Sequence record: MK962753.1
Direction: 5' to 3' (one strand)
Length of the DNA stretch: 64,000 nt
DNA from: Shigella phage JK32
In this document: piece by piece, positions 33,185 to 54,248 of the stretch
Position numbering within the stretch: position 1 is the stretch's first letter
Layout of the letters: each line of letters starts with the position of its first letter
Made by a program: the position numbers and the translations under genes
Notes under the pieces: generated by a model
What the model was told of the DNA's origin: nothing
The model's input: the letters and a program-made list of their open reading frames with translations, nothing else
The model's database searches: none

Positions 33185-33225
33185 TGTGCATTATAGGGGA
33201 TCGATGATCCCCTGTCAACAACTTT
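33185..33225 (-). promoter_or_regulatory. Early sigma70-type promoter cassette with palindromic spacer (PeSL-like), copy 1
   Basis: Minus strand TTGACA-17 nt (GGGGATCATCGATCCCC)-TATAAT, then conserved leader ..CGAAACGA..AAGGAG..ATG. Confidence 0.65.
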
Positions 33226-47818: not shown

Positions 47819-47854
47819 CTTGATACTCCTTAGTAAGTTAGTTTCGTTTCGATG

Positions 47855-47895
47855 GGGGTATATTACTACCCCCGTTTCAGGCTGTCAACTACTTT
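47855..47895 (-). promoter_or_regulatory. PeSL-like early promoter cassette, copy 10
   Basis: TTGACA-17 nt-TAATAT; palindrome GGGGGTA..TACCCCC overlaps the -10. Confidence 0.6.
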
Positions 47896-48107
47896 TTAAT
47901 GACAAGTTCGAATTTTGCTACCTTACGTCCTCGTTTATTGAAAGCAACCCACGGACGGTTTTCAATGTAGAACAATTCTTCACCAATAATGAATACTGGC
48001 TGATTGTAAAGGCGACCCATCAGGTCACGCTGGCGAATGGTAGTAGATTCGTATACTTCGCCTACTACAAAGTGTTTGCTGATAGAGTCGGTGCAGATAA
48101 ATTTCAT
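47889..48107 (-). CDS. Hypothetical early protein (72 aa)
   Basis: Start at ATG 48107 with RBS AAGGAGA; the ORF-track N-terminal extension (..SKQRRIKMK) would translate the promoter leader. Confidence 0.5.
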   Translation of the reverse strand: MKFICTDSISKHFVVGEVYESTTIRQRDLMGRLYNQPVFIIGEELFYIENRPWVAFNKRGRKVAKFELVIKK

Positions 48108-48129
48108 TTTGATTCTCCTTTGTTTCGAT

Positions 48130-48170
48130 GGGGGTATATTACTACCCCCGCTATTCAGTGTCAACTACTT
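48130..48170 (-). promoter_or_regulatory. PeSL-like early promoter cassette, copy 11
   Basis: Near-identical to copy 10: TTGACA-17 nt-TAATAT with GGGGGTA..TACCCCC. Confidence 0.6.
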
Positions 48171-48171
48171 T

Positions 48172-48390
48172 TTACTTGTTGTATTCATTCCACCATTGGG
48201 TTAGCTTATCAATTATTTTTGTGTTTCTATCCAACTTCTCCCACCGTTTTCGAGGGTTTATCAACCGGAATAGGTAAGGTGTACTTGTTAAGTGAACTCG
48301 GTCAATGTAGTGATTGATGTACTGCTTTTCAATTCTAAGTTTCATCTTTTTACGATGAAAATATGCAATGACTTGTTCTTCTGTTTCCAT
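48172..48390 (-). CDS. Hypothetical early protein (72 aa)
   Basis: ORF with RBS GGAGGA downstream of promoter cassette. Confidence 0.5.
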   Translation of the reverse strand: METEEQVIAYFHRKKMKLRIEKQYINHYIDRVHLTSTPYLFRLINPRKRWEKLDRNTKIIDKLTQWWNEYNK

Positions 48391-48409
48391 ATGTTCCTCC
48401 GTTTCGATG

Positions 48410-48450
48410 TGCGTATTATGCTATGGTAAGATCCGATTGTCAACACCCAA
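48410..48450 (-). promoter_or_regulatory. Early promoter cassette, copy 12
   Basis: TTGACA-17 nt-CATAAT. Confidence 0.55.
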
Positions 48451-48490: not shown

Positions 48491-48967
48491 TTAATCATGA
48501 CCGTGATTTGCAATATCCGCTCGCGTCTTGTCTTTGTGATTTCCTACGTCAAAGACACGATAGCCGTTTTCTCTAAGAACTTTAATCACTTCTGGGTTAT
48601 CCTCAAAGACTCCGACAACTTCATCTTTATCAAAGGATTTAATTACCTCTAATTTGATGTGATAGTCTTTACGGGAATCGGTACGGCCTCTCATAAAGAT
48701 TTTATCAAAACACACTCCGTTAGAAATTAACCAATCAATTGTTTCCATGTAAGCATGTGAACTTCGTCCGGTGAGGATGTAAATCAAATGACCGTTGTCA
48801 GAAAGAGCATTGATAACACGAATTACATCGTAAATGGGGGAATCTCCCCCACATGCCTTGTTATATTCGATCCATGACTCGACTTTATCAAGATTTTCGG
48901 TTGGCATCTTTGCTAGTCGATGCGTTGGATCTGTGATCGTAAAATCTAAATCGACAAAATATATCAT
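48491..48967 (-). CDS. HAD-superfamily phosphatase-like protein
   Basis: N-terminal DxDxT motif (FVDLDFTIT) and downstream ILTGRS. Confidence 0.5.
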   Translation of the reverse strand: MIYFVDLDFTITDPTHRLAKMPTENLDKVESWIEYNKACGGDSPIYDVIRVINALSDNGHLIYILTGRSSHAYMETIDWLISNGVCFDKIFMRGRTDSRKDYHIKLEVIKSFDKDEVVGVFEDNPEVIKVLRENGYRVFDVGNHKDKTRADIANHGHD

Positions 48968-50124
48968 AGATATTTCCCGAATCGGTTGTAGTCGTCGTCT
49001 GTTAAATCGGTATTAACCTGAGATACCAGATACATAATCTCTACTTCTTGCGCCGCGTTTTGAACTTCGTCAGAGTTCAACCATTTACGCATCCACGGTA
49101 AAGGATGACGACGAACACTAAACGGGCTTTTCAGTCCGGCAGCACGCATACGGGAATCTGCCAGGTATTCTACATAGGTTTTCAGAATTTCCGGTGACAG
49201 GTTAGGAATTGCCCCCATTGCGAATAGGTGGTCTACCCATTCTTTTTCTTGCTCGACAACATCCAGAAAGATTTTCGTTGCTTCGTCTTCAAGTTCTTCC
49301 GCAATCTGTTTCCACTCATCACCGTCAGCCCCCGTTTGCCATTGACGAATAATGTATTGTGTGCCTTTTAAGTGAAGTTGTTCATCACGCGCAATAAATT
49401 TCATGATCTTCGCGTTACCTTCCAGTAAACCACGTTCGGCAAAGCTGAAAGTACATGCAAAGGACACATAAAAACGGATTGCTTCCAAAGCATTAACGCA
49501 GTGTGCACACAGATAAATCGACGCCATCAGATCTCGTTTTGTATCTTCAAAAAATCTTCTTGCATCATCTAATGCTGTCTGGTCTTCTCGGTCTTCCCAA
49601 TAGCGGAGATCTTCTTTTGCATTCTCATACTTACGAATCCAATAAAGAACATCATCATAATATTGCCCGATAGATTCCGCTCGCTTCATGATAGCAGGGT
49701 TATCGATGATCTGGTCAAACTCACTAGCCGGATCAATGAAACAGTTACGCATAATGTGAGTATAACTGCGGCTATGAATTGTCTCGCTGAATGTCCATGT
49801 TTGCAACCATGTATCGAGAGTCGGATCAGATACAATTGGACCAAATGCTGCGGACGGTGCGCGACCTTGAATAGAATCAAGTAATGTCTGATACTTCAAG
49901 TTTTCTGTAAAGAAACGTTTTTCAACATCGCCCATATTAAGATATTGAATACGGTCGGTTGCAAGTGAAATCTCTTCTGGACGCCAGAAAAATGACAGAG
50001 ATTTTTCAATTAATTCTTCAAATACTTGATGACGCTGAATATCATAGCGAGCGATACCCAACCCACTACCCAGAAACATTGGTTCGTTCATAATATCAAC
50101 ATGTTCGCGGTTAAATACGCTCAT
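48964..50124 (-). CDS. nrdB: Ribonucleotide reductase small subunit NrdB
   Basis: 386 aa; di-iron RNR beta-subunit features; synteny with nrdA. Confidence 0.9.
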   Translation of the reverse strand: MSVFNREHVDIMNEPMFLGSGLGIARYDIQRHQVFEELIEKSLSFFWRPEEISLATDRIQYLNMGDVEKRFFTENLKYQTLLDSIQGRAPSAAFGPIVSDPTLDTWLQTWTFSETIHSRSYTHIMRNCFIDPASEFDQIIDNPAIMKRAESIGQYYDDVLYWIRKYENAKEDLRYWEDREDQTALDDARRFFEDTKRDLMASIYLCAHCVNALEAIRFYVSFACTFSFAERGLLEGNAKIMKFIARDEQLHLKGTQYIIRQWQTGADGDEWKQIAEELEDEATKIFLDVVEQEKEWVDHLFAMGAIPNLSPEILKTYVEYLADSRMRAAGLKSPFSVRRHPLPWMRKWLNSDEVQNAAQEVEIMYLVSQVNTDLTDDDYNRFGKYL

Positions 50125-50139
50125 TAATTCACCTCACTA

Positions 50140-50307
50140 TCACTTTTTAACACAAAAGAACTTAGTATTTCTGTTTATTTCTCTATCCTGTTGCAATTCC
50201 TGCATGGCTTCAAAACAACTTTGATGTGATGAAAACTCTACGCTGGTAACAGTTCCTTTATTATATACCCCGACACTAACGGAAAGCAATAACCATAATG
50301 TAGCCAT
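50140..50307 (-). CDS. Small hydrophobic-N-terminus protein (55 aa), paralogue pair member
   Basis: MATLWLLLSVSV...; TAATG coupling; homologous to 50307..50480. Confidence 0.4.
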   Translation of the reverse strand: MATLWLLLSVSVGVYNKGTVTSVEFSSHQSCFEAMQELQQDREINRNTKFFCVKK

Positions 50308-50480
50308 TAGTTCACCTTCTGCTTTTCAATGCAATACAGATTCATAAAGCGTTTATTGTCTTCGCGGATAATCTCGCGAGCTTTAACGCAATCCTGCTTT
50401 GTTGCAAATTCAATGCTTGACATGTTTCCGTAATTATACATTGAATTGCTTATTGCAATCAATAACCATACAGTAGCCAT
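50307..50480 (-). CDS. Small hydrophobic-N-terminus protein (57 aa), paralogue pair member
   Basis: MATVWLLIAISNS...; TAATG coupling at both ends. Confidence 0.4.
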   Translation of the reverse strand: MATVWLLIAISNSMYNYGNMSSIEFATKQDCVKAREIIREDNKRFMNLYCIEKQKVN

Positions 50481-50647
50481 TATCCGACAACCTCAAAACA
50501 TTTATCATCAGGAAGAATAGCCCATTCTACGCCGTATTCATCCTCAACGTAGTAGCAAGTCCCATCATGTCGAGCATCATATACATCACCGACAACAAAG
50601 CTATCAGCTAGCTCAAAATCTACAGCAACACATTTTAATTTTGCCAT
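50480..50647 (-). CDS. Small hypothetical protein (55 aa)
   Basis: Start at ATG 50647 with RBS GAGGA; the ORF-track upstream extension would translate the promoter. Confidence 0.45.
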   Translation of the reverse strand: MAKLKCVAVDFELADSFVVGDVYDARHDGTCYYVEDEYGVEWAILPDDKCFEVVG

Positions 50648-50674
50648 AATAAAATCCTCATTTGTTTTTGATGG

Positions 50675-50712
50675 TTGTATTATAGCGGGGATTTCTCCCC
50701 GCGTCAACACTT
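50675..50712 (-). promoter_or_regulatory. PeSL-like early promoter cassette, copy 13
   Basis: TTGACG-17 nt (CGGGGAGAAATCCCCGC)-TATAAT. Confidence 0.6.
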
Positions 50713-50715
50713 ATT

Positions 50716-52959
50716 TTACAGTTTGCAAGATGAACATTCGCTAGCGTCTTCCGTACCATCAGCACCATCACGCACGTTAGCGTAATACAGTGTCTTGAGA
50801 CCGTAATATTGAGCAAACAACATATCATCTAATACATCAGCAATATCGACTTTACCAGTCTTATAAGTGCTTGGATCGTAGGATGTATTGGAACTAATCG
50901 CCTGATCTACAAACTTCTGCATGATCGCTGCCAGTGTCAGATAAGGCTTGTTACCTTTCTTGATCAGTGTCCAAAGCAGGTCAATAACATCAGCATTATT
51001 CTCTACGTTCGGAATAACCTGATTAAATTGCCCTTCTTTCGATCCTTTAACCGATACAATCCCGCGAGGCGGTTCAATACCGTTTGTGCTGTTAGACACC
51101 TGAGAAGACGACTCACAAGGCATCAGAGCCGAAAGCGTACTGTTACGAATGCCATATTTTTTCAGGTCTTCGCGCAGTTCTTCCCAATCCATCTCATACA
51201 CCGGATCAACCAGTTCATCTACTGTCTTTTTGTACCAGTCGATAGGCAGTTCACCGCGACCATAACGTGTTTCGTGCATCAGTTCGCAAGCACCCTTCTC
51301 TTTAGCCAGTTGCACACTAGCCTTAATCAGAGCATATTGCAAGCGTTCAAACGTTTTATGCGTAAACTCGTTAGCGTCTTCATATGTGAAGAAATTATCC
51401 GCCAGATACGATGCAAAGTTAGTCACGCCAACACCCAGAGAGCGACGTTTTTTGGCTGTCAGAGCTTGTTCTACAGGATAATCCTGATAATCTAACAGGT
51501 TGTCAAGTGCACGCACCATAACCATAGCAATGCGTTCTACTTCTTCCATGTTTTCGATATCGAAATTACCTAAAACATATGCTGCCAAAGTACATAGGCT
51601 GATCTCTGAATCATCACGCCCCATTGGTTTAGTAGGCAGTGCAATTTCGCAACACAGGTTAGATTGTTTAATCGGTGCTACATTGCGAATAAACGCCCCG
51701 TGATTGTTCATGTTGTCTGTGAATGCTGGATAGATTCGACCAGTGTTAAAACGTTCAATCGCCACCGCTAAAAATAGGTCTTCGGCTTTAACACGAGTTT
51801 TACGAACACTCGGATCTTTTTCCAGTTTTTCGTAAAGCTGGCGGAAACCTTCCTCATCTCGGAAGTACAGATCCCACAACAAGCCACCCGCAACATCTGG
51901 ACTAAACAGAGTAATGTAATCCCGTTTAAGGAATCGCTCTACCATCAGGTTATTAATCTGTACGCCGTAATCAAGATGACGAATGCGGTTATCTTCTACC
52001 CCTTTGTTATTCTTCAACACAATAAGACTTTCAAATTCTAAATGCCACATTGGGTAATAGAGAGTCGCTGCCCCGCCACGAATACCGCCTTGTGAGCATG
52101 ACTTAACGGCAGTCTGAAAATGTTTCCAGAATGGGATAACGCCAGTATGACGAACTTCACCATGCCCGATCTTAGATCCTTCCGCGCGAATCATGCCAGC
52201 GTTGATACCGATACCAGCACGCTTGCTAATATACTTGATGATTGCATTTGCGGTTTCATTAATACCCTGCAATGAATCATCAGATTCGATCACCACACAC
52301 GAACTAAATTGTCGTGTTGGAGTACGCACACCCGCCATAATCGGAGTAGGCAGAGAGATTTGCTTATTCGCAACAGCATTATAAAAATCAATCACATGTT
52401 CAAGTCGATTTTCTGTCTCTTCTTGATGTAAGCACATACCGATCAACATATACGCAAATTGCGGTGTTTCAATGATTTTCTTAGTGCTGCGATCCTGAAC
52501 AAGATATTTCTCTTTTAACTGCATCGCACCCGCATAGGTCATTTTAAAATCAAGTTTATGGTCGATAAATTTCTCCAAATATTCCACTTCTTCACGGGAA
52601 TACTTTTGCAGAATTTCACGATCATATTTTCCGGTTGCAATATTACGCTCAATATGGCTGTAAAAATCACTCGGTTGGAATTGACCGTATACTGATTTAC
52701 GAAGCGCGAACATTGCAAGGTTACTTGCTACATATTGATAATCAGGAGTTTCTACAGTGATGTTATCTGCGGCGACCTTAATCAATACTTTCTGGATATC
52801 ATTGGTAGACATACCTTCTGTCAGAAGTGGTTCAACCATATCAAACAATTCATATGGATCAACGTTATGACCTTCGGCTGCCGCTTCCAAAATTTTCATT
52901 ACTTTTTCTTTTTCAAACGGAACAGTCAGACCGGAAGACTTAACAACATTTTTAATCAT
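50716..52959 (-). CDS. nrdA: Ribonucleotide reductase large subunit NrdA
   Basis: 747 aa; ATP-cone N-terminus, class I RNR alpha features, C-terminal CSSCKL-type tail. Confidence 0.92.
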   Translation of the reverse strand: MIKNVVKSSGLTVPFEKEKVMKILEAAAEGHNVDPYELFDMVEPLLTEGMSTNDIQKVLIKVAADNITVETPDYQYVASNLAMFALRKSVYGQFQPSDFYSHIERNIATGKYDREILQKYSREEVEYLEKFIDHKLDFKMTYAGAMQLKEKYLVQDRSTKKIIETPQFAYMLIGMCLHQEETENRLEHVIDFYNAVANKQISLPTPIMAGVRTPTRQFSSCVVIESDDSLQGINETANAIIKYISKRAGIGINAGMIRAEGSKIGHGEVRHTGVIPFWKHFQTAVKSCSQGGIRGGAATLYYPMWHLEFESLIVLKNNKGVEDNRIRHLDYGVQINNLMVERFLKRDYITLFSPDVAGGLLWDLYFRDEEGFRQLYEKLEKDPSVRKTRVKAEDLFLAVAIERFNTGRIYPAFTDNMNNHGAFIRNVAPIKQSNLCCEIALPTKPMGRDDSEISLCTLAAYVLGNFDIENMEEVERIAMVMVRALDNLLDYQDYPVEQALTAKKRRSLGVGVTNFASYLADNFFTYEDANEFTHKTFERLQYALIKASVQLAKEKGACELMHETRYGRGELPIDWYKKTVDELVDPVYEMDWEELREDLKKYGIRNSTLSALMPCESSSQVSNSTNGIEPPRGIVSVKGSKEGQFNQVIPNVENNADVIDLLWTLIKKGNKPYLTLAAIMQKFVDQAISSNTSYDPSTYKTGKVDIADVLDDMLFAQYYGLKTLYYANVRDGADGTEDASECSSCKL

Positions 52960-53027: not shown

Positions 53028-54248
53028 TTATACTGCCATTTGAGCGGTGATCGCTGGATGGCTTTGATAGTTGTGAATTTTAAAGTCTTTCGGAGTCTTT
53101 GTCAATACCTCATCTAAAGACTTAAATTCCGGCAACTCAATTGTTGGTTTATCAAACGGAACACGGTTTAATTGTTCCATAACTTGATCAAAGTGGTTTT
53201 TGTAAATGTGAGTATCTCCACCAGAGAAAATCAGTTCTCCTACCTCAAGATCACACATTTTCGCTATGATGTGGGTTAAAAGTGCATAGCTGGCAACATT
53301 AAAGGGCAAGCCCAAAAAGCTGTCTACGCTTCTCTGAAACCACATACAAGACAGTTTACCTTCATTGACGTAGAATTGCACGAAAGGATGACATACACCT
53401 AACACAGCATTATGTGTTCCTTGTACGTTCCATGAGTCAATAATGATCCGGCGATCCGTTGGATTGTTTTTAATTTGTTCAATCACGTTTTGTAACTGGT
53501 CTTCCCAAATCTTCGGTCGATAGATATATTCTTCATCGTCTTTAGGGCTTGATGTGTCTACGTCCATATTAACAAAGATCGTGGTATCCGGTGCGAACAT
53601 ATCCCCACCCAGATAATCACTATCAAGCAGATAACCGAAATAACCATCATCTACCCATTCCTGGAATCCCCACAAGCAATATGCATCATTAACAAAATTA
53701 GATTGAGTCTTCCAGTGGTCTGCTACCAGAATATAATCAAACTCTTCATAACGCATACCACGCCAGATAGCACATAAACGGTCTTCTGTGTCATTGGTTG
53801 GCGTAAAGTCTTCTACCCACGGGTGCTTAAATGTATGTGTATATTTGCTCTTAACGCGCTTAATTTTGATTTCACCGTGTGGATGAATCGGTTTGCGTCG
53901 CCAAGCCATACCATACATATTGCCGACATTATAACCATTGAATCGCAAAGGATTCTTTTCTTTCATATCAAGACAGTTGCCGCGCCAAATGTCGAAGGCT
54001 TCTTCGTCAAACTTACCGCGTGTAATTTCCTGTAAGCGACGGCGGTCAAGTGATCCCTCCATAAACCATAGCAACTCGCCAATTACAGAGGCTGTAGCCA
54101 TCTTTTTAGTGGTCAGTAAGGGGAAACCCTTGCTTAAATCGATTCGCATCTCTGCGCCGAATTTAGAGAGCGTACCTACCCCCGTGCGGTCTTCACGAGG
54201 CCAGCCATTATCAAGAACATCACGCAACAGTTTCAAATATTCTTTCAT
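53028..54248 (-). CDS. td: Thymidylate synthase with a large in-frame insertion
   Basis: N- and C-terminal parts align with T4 Td (DRTGTGT, catalytic C in GVCHPFVQFYV, RSVDSFLGLPFNVASYALL, PKDF...HP.I...MAV); roughly 125 extra residues between the YG..WR and NDRR motifs. Confidence 0.85.
   Translation of the reverse strand: MKEYLKLLRDVLDNGWPREDRTGVGTLSKFGAEMRIDLSKGFPLLTTKKMATASVIGELLWFMEGSLDRRRLQEITRGKFDEEAFDIWRGNCLDMKEKNPLRFNGYNVGNMYGMAWRRKPIHPHGEIKIKRVKSKYTHTFKHPWVEDFTPTNDTEDRLCAIWRGMRYEEFDYILVADHWKTQSNFVNDAYCLWGFQEWVDDGYFGYLLDSDYLGGDMFAPDTTIFVNMDVDTSSPKDDEEYIYRPKIWEDQLQNVIEQIKNNPTDRRIIIDSWNVQGTHNAVLGVCHPFVQFYVNEGKLSCMWFQRSVDSFLGLPFNVASYALLTHIIAKMCDLEVGELIFSGGDTHIYKNHFDQVMEQLNRVPFDKPTIELPEFKSLDEVLTKTPKDFKIHNYQSHPAITAQMAV

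Follow-up and report, generated by a model that had tools for sequence, protein, structure and literature searches.

The NrdH and T4 NrdC redoxins, the YfaE ferredoxin and the NrdI flavodoxin are small proteins encoded beside ribonucleotide reductase (RNR) genes, and their cysteines are important. Here we analyze three short open reading frames (ORFs), named orfA, orfB and orfC, that lie between the RNR genes nrdA and nrdB in Shigella phage JK32 (sequence record MK962753.1); all positions refer to the window, i.e., the whole stretch of 64,000 nucleotides that was analyzed. The overall explanation that we favor, with some reserve, is that the three ORFs are genuine accessory genes of an early unit, encoding small soluble modulators that act outside the reductase.

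A closely similar arrangement already described is the PeSL, an early promoter combined with a stem-loop that attenuates upstream transcription and typically stands before small ORFans (Arbiol et al. 2010, PMC2839356). Promoter and terminator activities have been shown experimentally for other PeSLs (PMC2839356). In phage RB49, motA and middle promoters are missing, and T4-like early genes can be transcribed from the promoters of novel ORFs upstream of them (PMC1524935).

Gene organization of the nrdA-nrdB interval

The window belongs to the genus Krischvirus (RB49-like T4-type coliphages), and the 4.1-kb stretch around the locus is 96–98% identical in nucleotide sequence to ECD7, RB49, UPWr_E1 and more than 50 other records. 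All genes of the nrdA-nrdB locus are carried by the minus strand. A preliminary description of this DNA, which left the strand unstated, had placed three ORFs of 55–57 aa between nrdA and nrdB and linked them by TAATG; the coordinates, frames and Shine-Dalgarno (SD) sequences bear this out, and both inner junctions are found, at 50482–50478 and 50309–50305. The features of the locus are as follows.

50480–50647, minus strand: orfA, 55 aa, ATG to TAA; orthologue of RB49p233, PHROG 16302
50307–50480, minus strand: orfB, 57 aa, ATG to TAA; orthologue of RB49p232, PHROG 5579
50140–50307, minus strand: orfC, 55 aa, ATG to TGA (stop at 50142–50140); orthologue of RB49p231, PHROG 5579
50478–50482, minus strand: TAATG stop/start overlap of orfA and orfB, read from the sequence
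50305–50309, minus strand: TAATG stop/start overlap of orfB and orfC, read from the sequence
50655–50659, minus strand: SD sequence GAGGA of orfA, 7 nt ahead of its ATG, kept in 15 of 15 loci
50129–50135, minus strand: SD sequence GAGGTGA of nrdB, immediately 3' of the orfC stop
50679–50707, minus strand: predicted PeSL-type early promoter, with -35 TTGACG (50707–50702), a 17-nt spacer CGGGGAGAAATCCCCGC and -10 TATAAT (50684–50679)
50716–52959, minus strand: nrdA, RNR large subunit, 747 aa; Pfam Ribonuc_red_lgC (E 1e-127), plus ATP-cone and Ribonuc_red_lgN; annotated nrdA in RB49 and ECD7
48964–50124, minus strand: nrdB, RNR small subunit, 386 aa; Pfam Ribonuc_red_sm (E 6e-44); annotated in RB49 and ECD7
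48491–48967, minus strand: pseT-like phosphatase gene, in ATGA overlap with the end of nrdB

The TAA stop of nrdA occupies 50718–50716, and a 68-nt spacer separates nrdA from orfA, whose start is placed at the ATG at 50647, not at the GTG at 50710, since the PHROG profile starts at this ATG and the SD sequence lies ahead of it. GAGG precedes orfB and AAGGTGA precedes orfC, while nrdB starts at 50124, 15 nt beyond the orfC stop. The two TAATG junctions are alike because the starts of orfB and orfC share a 26-nt direct repeat, TAATGGCTAC..TATGGTTATTG.TT (50284–50309 and 50457–50482, 88% identical), which includes TAATG in both copies; judging from this repeat, both junctions have one shared origin. 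Stop/start overlaps (TAATG, TGATG or ATGA) between open frames of at least 45 codons number 25 in the window versus 3.3 in shuffles, with some of the 25 lying inside long genes and 10 of them being of the 1-nt type. Such overlaps are a general habit of this phage genome, and the junctions at orfA-orfB-orfC are not special.

Coding status and previous annotation

The frames of orfA, orfB and orfC are open in most of 15 related genomes, and the substitutions fall mostly at third codon positions (10 of the 15 variable sites in orfB). The ratios of nonsynonymous to synonymous substitution rates (dN/dS), calculated by the Nei-Gojobori method over 13–15 Krischvirus loci with 15–26 variable sites per ORF, are 0.31 for orfA, 0.07 for orfB and 0.30 for orfC, as compared with 0.044 for nrdB and 0.022 for nrdA. 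Conservation in related phages, which had been suggested as a check on the ORFs, is thus apparent, with dN/dS of 0.07–0.31 over mostly open frames. On the opposite strand, no ORF longer than 34 aa runs across the three ORFs, and an Rfam search of the region returned no RNA family. At the sequence level, orfB and orfC are certainly coding, because their family of 70 representatives has invariant cysteines and further conserved residues (see below), and orfA is coding as well, under weaker constraint.

These genes had been called easy to miss, which does not hold: they have been annotated as coding sequences for hypothetical proteins since RB49 (2003), in Phi1, ECD7 and more than 50 other records, and they have PHROG families. 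The locus names are RB49p233/p232/p231, Phi1 ORF231–233 and ECD7_00226–228, and the hypothetical-protein annotation is also present in GEC-3S, Sf20, KFS-EC, MIZ2, G5211 and ELT4. A literature search found neither papers that name the locus tags or accessions of the three ORFs nor relevant Krischvirus transcriptome or proteome data. The ORFs, their PHROG families and the predicted promoter were all known before, and the locus is biologically ordinary for a T4-type phage.

OrfB and OrfC are members of a widespread phage family

The proposal that two of the three ORFs are paralogous is supported in that they belong to one family: OrfB and OrfC align by BLASTP with 36% identity and 71% positives (E 6e-16), and both match PHROG 5579, OrfC with an E-value of 6.6e-24 (residues 2–55 on profile positions 1–52 of 52) and OrfB with 2e-23. 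In the family comparison, the identity between OrfB and OrfC (38%) is no higher than that with members found elsewhere (31–52%). They are two members of one family, for which these values do not demonstrate a recent tandem duplication. Their likeness in DNA is restricted to the first 26 nt, including TAATG (88%).

A word-indexed protein search returned close relatives only, and the family was revealed by an exhaustive hidden Markov model (HMM) search with an orfB/orfC profile, which at E ≤ 1e-3 yielded 70 cluster representatives, with few exceptions 50–70 aa long. In an alignment of 45 sequences, with a mean column identity of 30%, C31 and C52 (OrfC numbering) show no variation and L7, S11 and F25 almost none, and an S-x-G-x-Y-N-x-G loop is strongly conserved; 40 of these 45 members also match PHROG 5579. 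OrfB and OrfC both carry the two invariant cysteines, the W-L-L core strand and the loop. Exactly two cysteines are present in 66 of the 73 family representatives, at a spacing of 19–21 residues in OrfB and OrfC and of 15–24 across the family. Sequence and profile searches of Pfam, NCBIfam and the PDB with OrfA, OrfB, OrfC and the family profile gave nothing above threshold.

When orfA and orfB were searched by tblastn against 50,697 phage records (E ≤ 1), only Krischvirus and one Enterobacter phage were found, and scans of IMG/VR and metagenomes contributed Krischvirus-like contigs only. When 185,579 bacterial and archaeal genomes were scanned with a degenerate DNA motif, 61 loci were obtained, mostly one conserved Xanthomonadales gene and none a true member by HMM; no prophage copy was found by this strict motif, which divergent copies could escape. 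The family appears to be phage-borne, because this strict scan found no member in bacterial genomes. The members come from unrelated phages in every case in which the context was examined, and outside the T4-like phages they are found among strings of small early ORFs. In Enterobacter phage SDFMU_EhYP (hereafter EhYP) and in the source of member P0087 (Autographiviridae), the member is located after a DnaB-like helicase. The EhYP record (OQ884031.1; locus L003) has at 2644–2814, on the plus strand, an unannotated 56-aa member between a helicase-like ATPase and DNA polymerase, in a stretch of more than 1 kb for which the record lists no genes and in which several plausible small ORFs occur.

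Predicted fold and the hydrophobic N terminus

The AlphaFold2 model of OrfC, built on an 11-sequence alignment, has a compact β-β-α-β fold with a predicted local distance difference test score (pLDDT) of 83 and a predicted template modeling score of 0.65. It comprises strands 5–11 and 20–25, helix 28–39, a short helix 42–47 and strand 48–54. The BFVD model of the Ec_Makalu_003 orthologue superposes on it with a template modeling score of 0.90. The hydrophobic N terminus is modeled as β1 of a three-stranded sheet, with a pLDDT of 85 over residues 1–10. In this model OrfB and OrfC would be a small soluble domain with the hydrophobic N terminus as the central strand, and the cysteine pair would lie at the end of the domain opposite the S-x-G-x-Y-N-x-G loop, on the helix N terminus and the last strand. 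From this topology C31, at the helix N terminus, and C52, close to the end of the parallel last strand, should come together at one end of the domain, where a disulfide or half of an intersubunit metal site would be possible.

The preliminary description had taken the hydrophobic N terminus for a signal peptide or membrane anchor, a suggestion that the analysis does not support. The best 19-residue Kyte-Doolittle windows reach 0.61 in OrfB and 1.07 in OrfC, with a family median of 0.96 and a membrane threshold of 1.6. The N termini MATLW and MATVW of OrfB and OrfC lack Lys and Arg; their uncharged run of 11–13 residues, with S-x-G or S-x-S after it, is compatible with an h-region and small residues at -3 and -1, though very short. 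Among the 73 representatives, the uncharged run has a median length of 13 residues and the n-region one of 3 residues, with Lys or Arg ahead of the hydrophobic core in just 14 and in none of the other 59. The stretch is moreover conserved in sequence (W-L-L-I/L-x-V/I-S), with W5, L6, L7 and S11 standing out at 30% mean column identity, and it is the conserved strand of the AlphaFold2 model. A transmembrane anchor was rejected, as no 19-residue window reaches 1.6, and a Sec signal peptide was judged unlikely on hydropathy, n-region charge, sequence conservation and the structure model.

orfA is unrelated to orfB and orfC

OrfA is an acidic mini-protein (pI 4.05) with three cysteines, predicted to be all-β; it is unrelated to OrfB and OrfC and found in Krischvirus only, in 58 phage records by tblastn (orfB is present at ≥95% identity in 52). 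It matches PHROG 16302 with an E-value of 8.2e-41 (residues 1–55 on profile positions 1–55 of 55); like PHROG 5579, this family is described as of unknown function. The best Pfam hit, DUF7244, stays at 15.5 bits (E 0.019), under its gathering threshold of 27 bits, and the single-sequence AlphaFold2 model (pLDDT 53) is unusable. A candidate orfA paralogue at 47892–48107 was rejected: the similarity spans 13 residues only (E 0.001 in a two-sequence comparison), and the two have no common Pfam family. The frame of orfA is shifted in FL20 and carries a premature stop in ELT3 (sequencing error possible), while in GEC-3S (locus L017, 1817–2005) an in-frame 21-nt tandem duplication (DVYDARR-DEYDARH) gives a 62-aa protein, sequencing error again being possible.

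A predicted PeSL-type promoter between nrdA and the mini-genes

The PeSL-type element upstream of orfA shares 11 of 12 positions with the sigma70 consensus. The A/T-rich TAAAATAAGTG lies between the nrdA stop and TTGACG, and the SD sequence and ATG of orfA follow directly downstream. In the space between the -35 box and the -10 box, a hairpin with a 7-bp G/C stem (GCGGGGA-GAAA-TCCCCGC, 50702–50685) has a folding energy of -19 kcal/mol (z -5.2), and none of 200 shuffles is equally stable. Two copies of the exact pattern TTGAC-N18-TATAAT are present in the window, versus 0.1 expected. The 29 nt of the element are identical in 15 of 15 Krischvirus loci, from genomes that otherwise differ by 3–8%, and also in a metagenomic relative, L005, whose NrdB is 81% identical. 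Its position is that of the RB49 early promoter Pe:134563 predicted by Nolan 2006, and a promoter is also annotated in GEC-3S.

There is no terminator-like site between the PeSL and nrdB. The co-expression suggested in the preliminary description is very probable as regards nrdB, because the promoter lies upstream and no terminator-like site intervenes. As read from these elements, the PeSL most likely drives orfA, orfB, orfC and nrdB as one early transcript that runs on into the pseT-like gene.

Other promoter-like elements were observed in the window. The second exact PeSL, at 33190–33218 on the minus strand, reads TTGACA-GGGGATCATCGATCCCC-TATAAT, with a G/C hairpin filling the spacer. Downstream of the nrdB/pseT-like unit, three PeSL-like direct repeats (47843–47898, 48119–48174 and 48400–48423, spaced by 276–279 nt) form a classical hyperplastic region, with matching RB49 early promoters in supplementary file 2 of Nolan 2006. 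Each repeat carries, on the minus strand, TTGACA followed by GGGGGTA..TACCCCC overlapping the -10 box, ahead of an ORF of 72–132 aa; on the plus strand the repeats create a spurious 165-aa ORF with a repeated RWGYITTP motif. Within orfB and orfC themselves, the conserved Tyr-Asn is encoded as TATAAT and Leu-Leu-Ile as TTATTGATT (50433–50462 and 50240–50290, minus strand), which gives a sigma70-like match inside orfB and a similar string in orfC. These strings are probably a by-product of codon choice, the alternative being an internal nrdB promoter.

Remodeling of the nrdA-nrdB slot in relatives

The content of the slot varies among relatives. In JSE, a gene for a 215-aa homing endonuclease stands in place of orfB and orfC, while orfA, nrdA and nrdB are kept. 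By tblastn, FL20 and G37-3 show an orfC-like copy and no orfB. The FL20 junction reads ATGGCTACTGTATGGTTATTG (orfB) and then CTTTCCGTTAGC (orfC), from which it appears that FL20 has lost exactly one gene via a crossover inside the shared 11 nucleotides TATGGTTATTG. An HNH endonuclease gene lies between orfC and nrdB in G5211 and in the metagenomic contig L087. In the T4-like Winklervirus CHI14, the slot contains a 65-aa ORF that is unrelated. In L005, which is without orfA, the PeSL is followed by a single family member (P0017, 51% identical to OrfC) and then by nrdB, and in L093 a member (P0019, with 49% identity to OrfC) is joined through TAATG to another ORF upstream and lies 12 nt ahead of an nrdB whose product is 92% identical. 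The nrdB-adjoining members are thus 49–51% identical to OrfC while the neighboring NrdB proteins are 81–92% identical; by these comparisons the mini-genes evolve much faster than the reductase. In sequence terms, orfA, orfB and orfC behave as dispensable cargo in a recombination-prone slot, which for orfB and orfC is argued because they are lost or replaced in natural isolates and because members occur in RNR-free phages.

Further insertions and rearrangements were observed in this part of the genomes. Beside the HNH insertion in L087, at 1587–1721, is a 44-aa in-frame chimera of OrfB 1–30 and OrfC 42–55 without the first conserved cysteine, which is the product of a natural deletion or else an artefact of assembly. 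In L005 (1753–4940), an I-HmuI/NUMOD-like homing endonuclease gene interrupts nrdA and divides it into two ORFs. The Krischvirus genomes SSG23, PTE-Eco09, phiS and Delraymugoa have endonuclease or methyltransferase insertions within the nrdA-nrdB stretch. Elsewhere in the window, at 53028–54248 on the minus strand, the thymidylate synthase gene encodes 406 aa, some 120 aa beyond the usual ThyA, and a large insertion separates "...MAWRRK" from "WEDQL..."; the td gene of RB49 has a similar length.

Proposed function and alternative explanations

We propose that the early unit would begin at the PeSL, right after the nrdA stop, the hairpin also attenuating read-through from nrdA. The transcript would carry orfA, orfB, orfC, nrdB and the overlapping pseT-like gene, with the mini-genes riding in the nrdB leader; each mini-gene has its own SD sequence, and the 1-nt TAATG overlaps would let a terminating ribosome re-initiate. 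OrfB and OrfC would fold as small soluble β-β-α-β domains, and the mini-proteins would act early in the cytoplasm by binding or modulating a partner from host or phage, separate from the reductase, probably as dimers that the cysteine pair would link through a metal or a disulfide. We regard the anatomy of the orfA-orfB-orfC-nrdB unit, in genes and expression, as well founded, and put the function as cytoplasmic binders or modulators forward tentatively. Several points weigh against this proposal. The dN/dS values come from just 15–26 variable sites per ORF; transcription from the PeSL and translation of the three ORFs are deduced from the DNA; and the role as host modulator is drawn by analogy with other small early phage proteins. 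The alignment behind the OrfC model is shallow (11 sequences), with the five models ranging in pLDDT from 65 to 83, and AlphaFold2 does not model signal peptides. The S-x-G that follows the hydrophobic stretch agrees with the -3/-1 rule for signal peptidase, and a pair of invariant cysteines is seen more typically in proteins that are exported (disulfide) or have redox or metal functions than in binders of a general kind. Finally, a family member is kept directly before nrdB, at 7–15 nt, in three diverged lineages of RB49-related phages (Krischvirus, L005 and L093), which may reflect either a link to NrdB or inertia of gene order.

The last two points bear on two other explanations. If the N terminus were a very short Sec signal or anchor, cleavage after S-x-G would release a periplasmic peptide of ~42 residues with a C31–C52 disulfide, with a role, e.g., in superinfection exclusion or envelope action. 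This is unlikely in view of the short uncharged run (~13 residues), the n-region (median 3, with Lys or Arg in 14 of 73), the 19-residue hydropathy of 0.6–1.1 at best, the conservation of W5, L6, L7 and S11, which is unlike signal peptides, and the modeling of the segment as a sheet strand (pLDDT 85), without which the sheet would be left with two strands. Alternatively, OrfB and OrfC might be small redox or metal proteins built on the cysteine pair and working for NrdB or NrdA, e.g., by assembling or maintaining the cofactor or by delivering electrons. Such a helper role, analogous to that of YfaE, NrdI or NrdH, would explain their position directly before nrdB. The helix N terminus is a typical position for reactive thiols, and one of the invariant cysteines is placed there in the model; orfB and orfC also have a promoter in common with nrdB. 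Such a role is nevertheless quite improbable. There is no CXXC (the spacing is 15–24), and searches of Pfam, NCBIfam and PDB sequences gave no match to thioredoxin-, glutaredoxin-, ferredoxin- or flavodoxin-like families. JSE is viable and keeps nrdA and nrdB without orfB and orfC, FL20 lacks orfB, and in Winklervirus, a T4-like phage, the slot is occupied by an unrelated ORF. A member is present in the complete EhYP genome, from which NrdA and NrdB are absent by annotation and tblastn; other members, with examples on contigs of 40–80 kb, have no RNR gene in the 4–6 kb of flank fetched on each side. A functional tie to RNR is not supported, given the members in RNR-free phages and the absence or replacement of orfB/orfC in viable Krischvirus.

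The frames could also be due to chance or be decaying remnants, the region being only the 5' leader or spacer of the nrdB mRNA. In favor of this, the frame of orfA is broken in FL20 and ELT3 and contains the duplication in GEC-3S, the 44-aa orfB/orfC chimera without C31 exists, and the entire orfB-orfC block can be lost. This explanation is hardly credible against the dN/dS of 0.07 in orfB, the ~70 cluster representatives with invariant residues, the SD sequence before every ORF, a predicted fold that is confident and reproducible, and the lack of any Rfam RNA family here. A bolder idea is that PHROG 5579 is an undescribed class of phage thiol or metal mini-proteins, 55-residue β-β-α-β domains pairing a reactive cysteine at the helix N terminus with one on the last strand, possibly with Zn or Fe-S held across a dimer (in Krischvirus an OrfB/OrfC heterodimer), that was recruited in RB49-type phages to support NrdB, or else a new anti-defense or host-takeover effector; we consider this quite unlikely as well.

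On the preferred reading, as accessory modulators outside the reductase, the genes behave as typical optional early genes of T4-type phages, and the locus as found matters little. Its residual interest lies in an uncharacterized family of cysteine-pair mini-proteins and in the rearrangement record of the nrdA-nrdB slot, a clean natural example of remodeling in which the promoter cassette is perfectly conserved and the cargo variable. PHROG 5579 can now be described as a widespread family of 50–70 residues in which two cysteines are invariant and the fold is predicted with confidence; at least one of its members, that of Enterobacter phage EhYP, lacks annotation in the published genome. This description leads to a specific hypothesis (metal, disulfide or redox), for which JSE and FL20 are natural knock-outs.

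Comparison with known systems

RB49p231–p233 have the same order, lengths (168, 174 and 168 nt), overlaps and flanking nrdA and nrdB, and the window differs by a few substitutions, e.g., Ala instead of Thr at residue 2 of OrfA. The PHROG 5579 entry is without description; the cysteine pair, the S-x-G-x-Y-N-x-G loop, the fold and the EhYP member were worked out here. Compared with NrdH, NrdC, YfaE and NrdI, OrfB and OrfC lack a CXXC or four-cysteine cluster motif and any profile match, and they differ in predicted fold size (55 aa, β-β-α-β) and in their occurrence in RNR-free genomes.

In T4, nrdA.1 and nrdA.2 are further genes of the nrdA-nrdB interval, besides mobE. The slot of T4, as described for mobE, is the same as that studied here; its optional genes are transcribed together with those of the reductase, and nrdB also has a promoter of its own (PMC2790892). 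Homing endonuclease genes are present in the equivalent slot of JSE, G5211 and L087. The proteins of the T4 slot and those of the mini-genes show no detectable homology (tblastn of orfA and orfB at E ≤ 1). The nrdB promoter of T4 is of the MotA middle type, and the nrdA-nrdB PeSL may be taken as the separate nrdB promoter here because RB49-type phages are without such promoters (PMC1524935).

Several differences from the described PeSL systems concern what lies behind the promoter. In the mini-circle model the cargo lies between PeSLs, whereas this locus has one PeSL only and the 15-nt gap between orfC and nrdB holds an SD sequence; the cargo is not flanked by two PeSLs because nothing PeSL-like occurs between orfC and nrdB, and no second promoter or hairpin is seen downstream of the nrdA-nrdB PeSL until past the pseT-like gene. 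Unlike in PeSL cassettes, a core gene, nrdB, would depend on this PeSL, and the observed rearrangements proceed not by PeSL-PeSL exchange but by paralogue-paralogue crossover and homing-endonuclease insertion. The main text of Arbiol et al. 2010 (PMC2839356) contains no discussion of the nrdA-nrdB PeSL. The likeness to the cassettes of PeSL plus ORFans in RB49 and phi1 (PMC2839356; Comeau et al. 2014, PMC4122927) is otherwise close: the order of a stop in A/T-rich sequence, a promoter with a polyG/polyC hairpin between -35 and -10, an SD sequence and the start of small ORFans is the same, the layout is that of the commonest PeSL subclass described (PMC2839356), and, as in those cassettes, the PeSL is kept while the cargo behind it varies between relatives.

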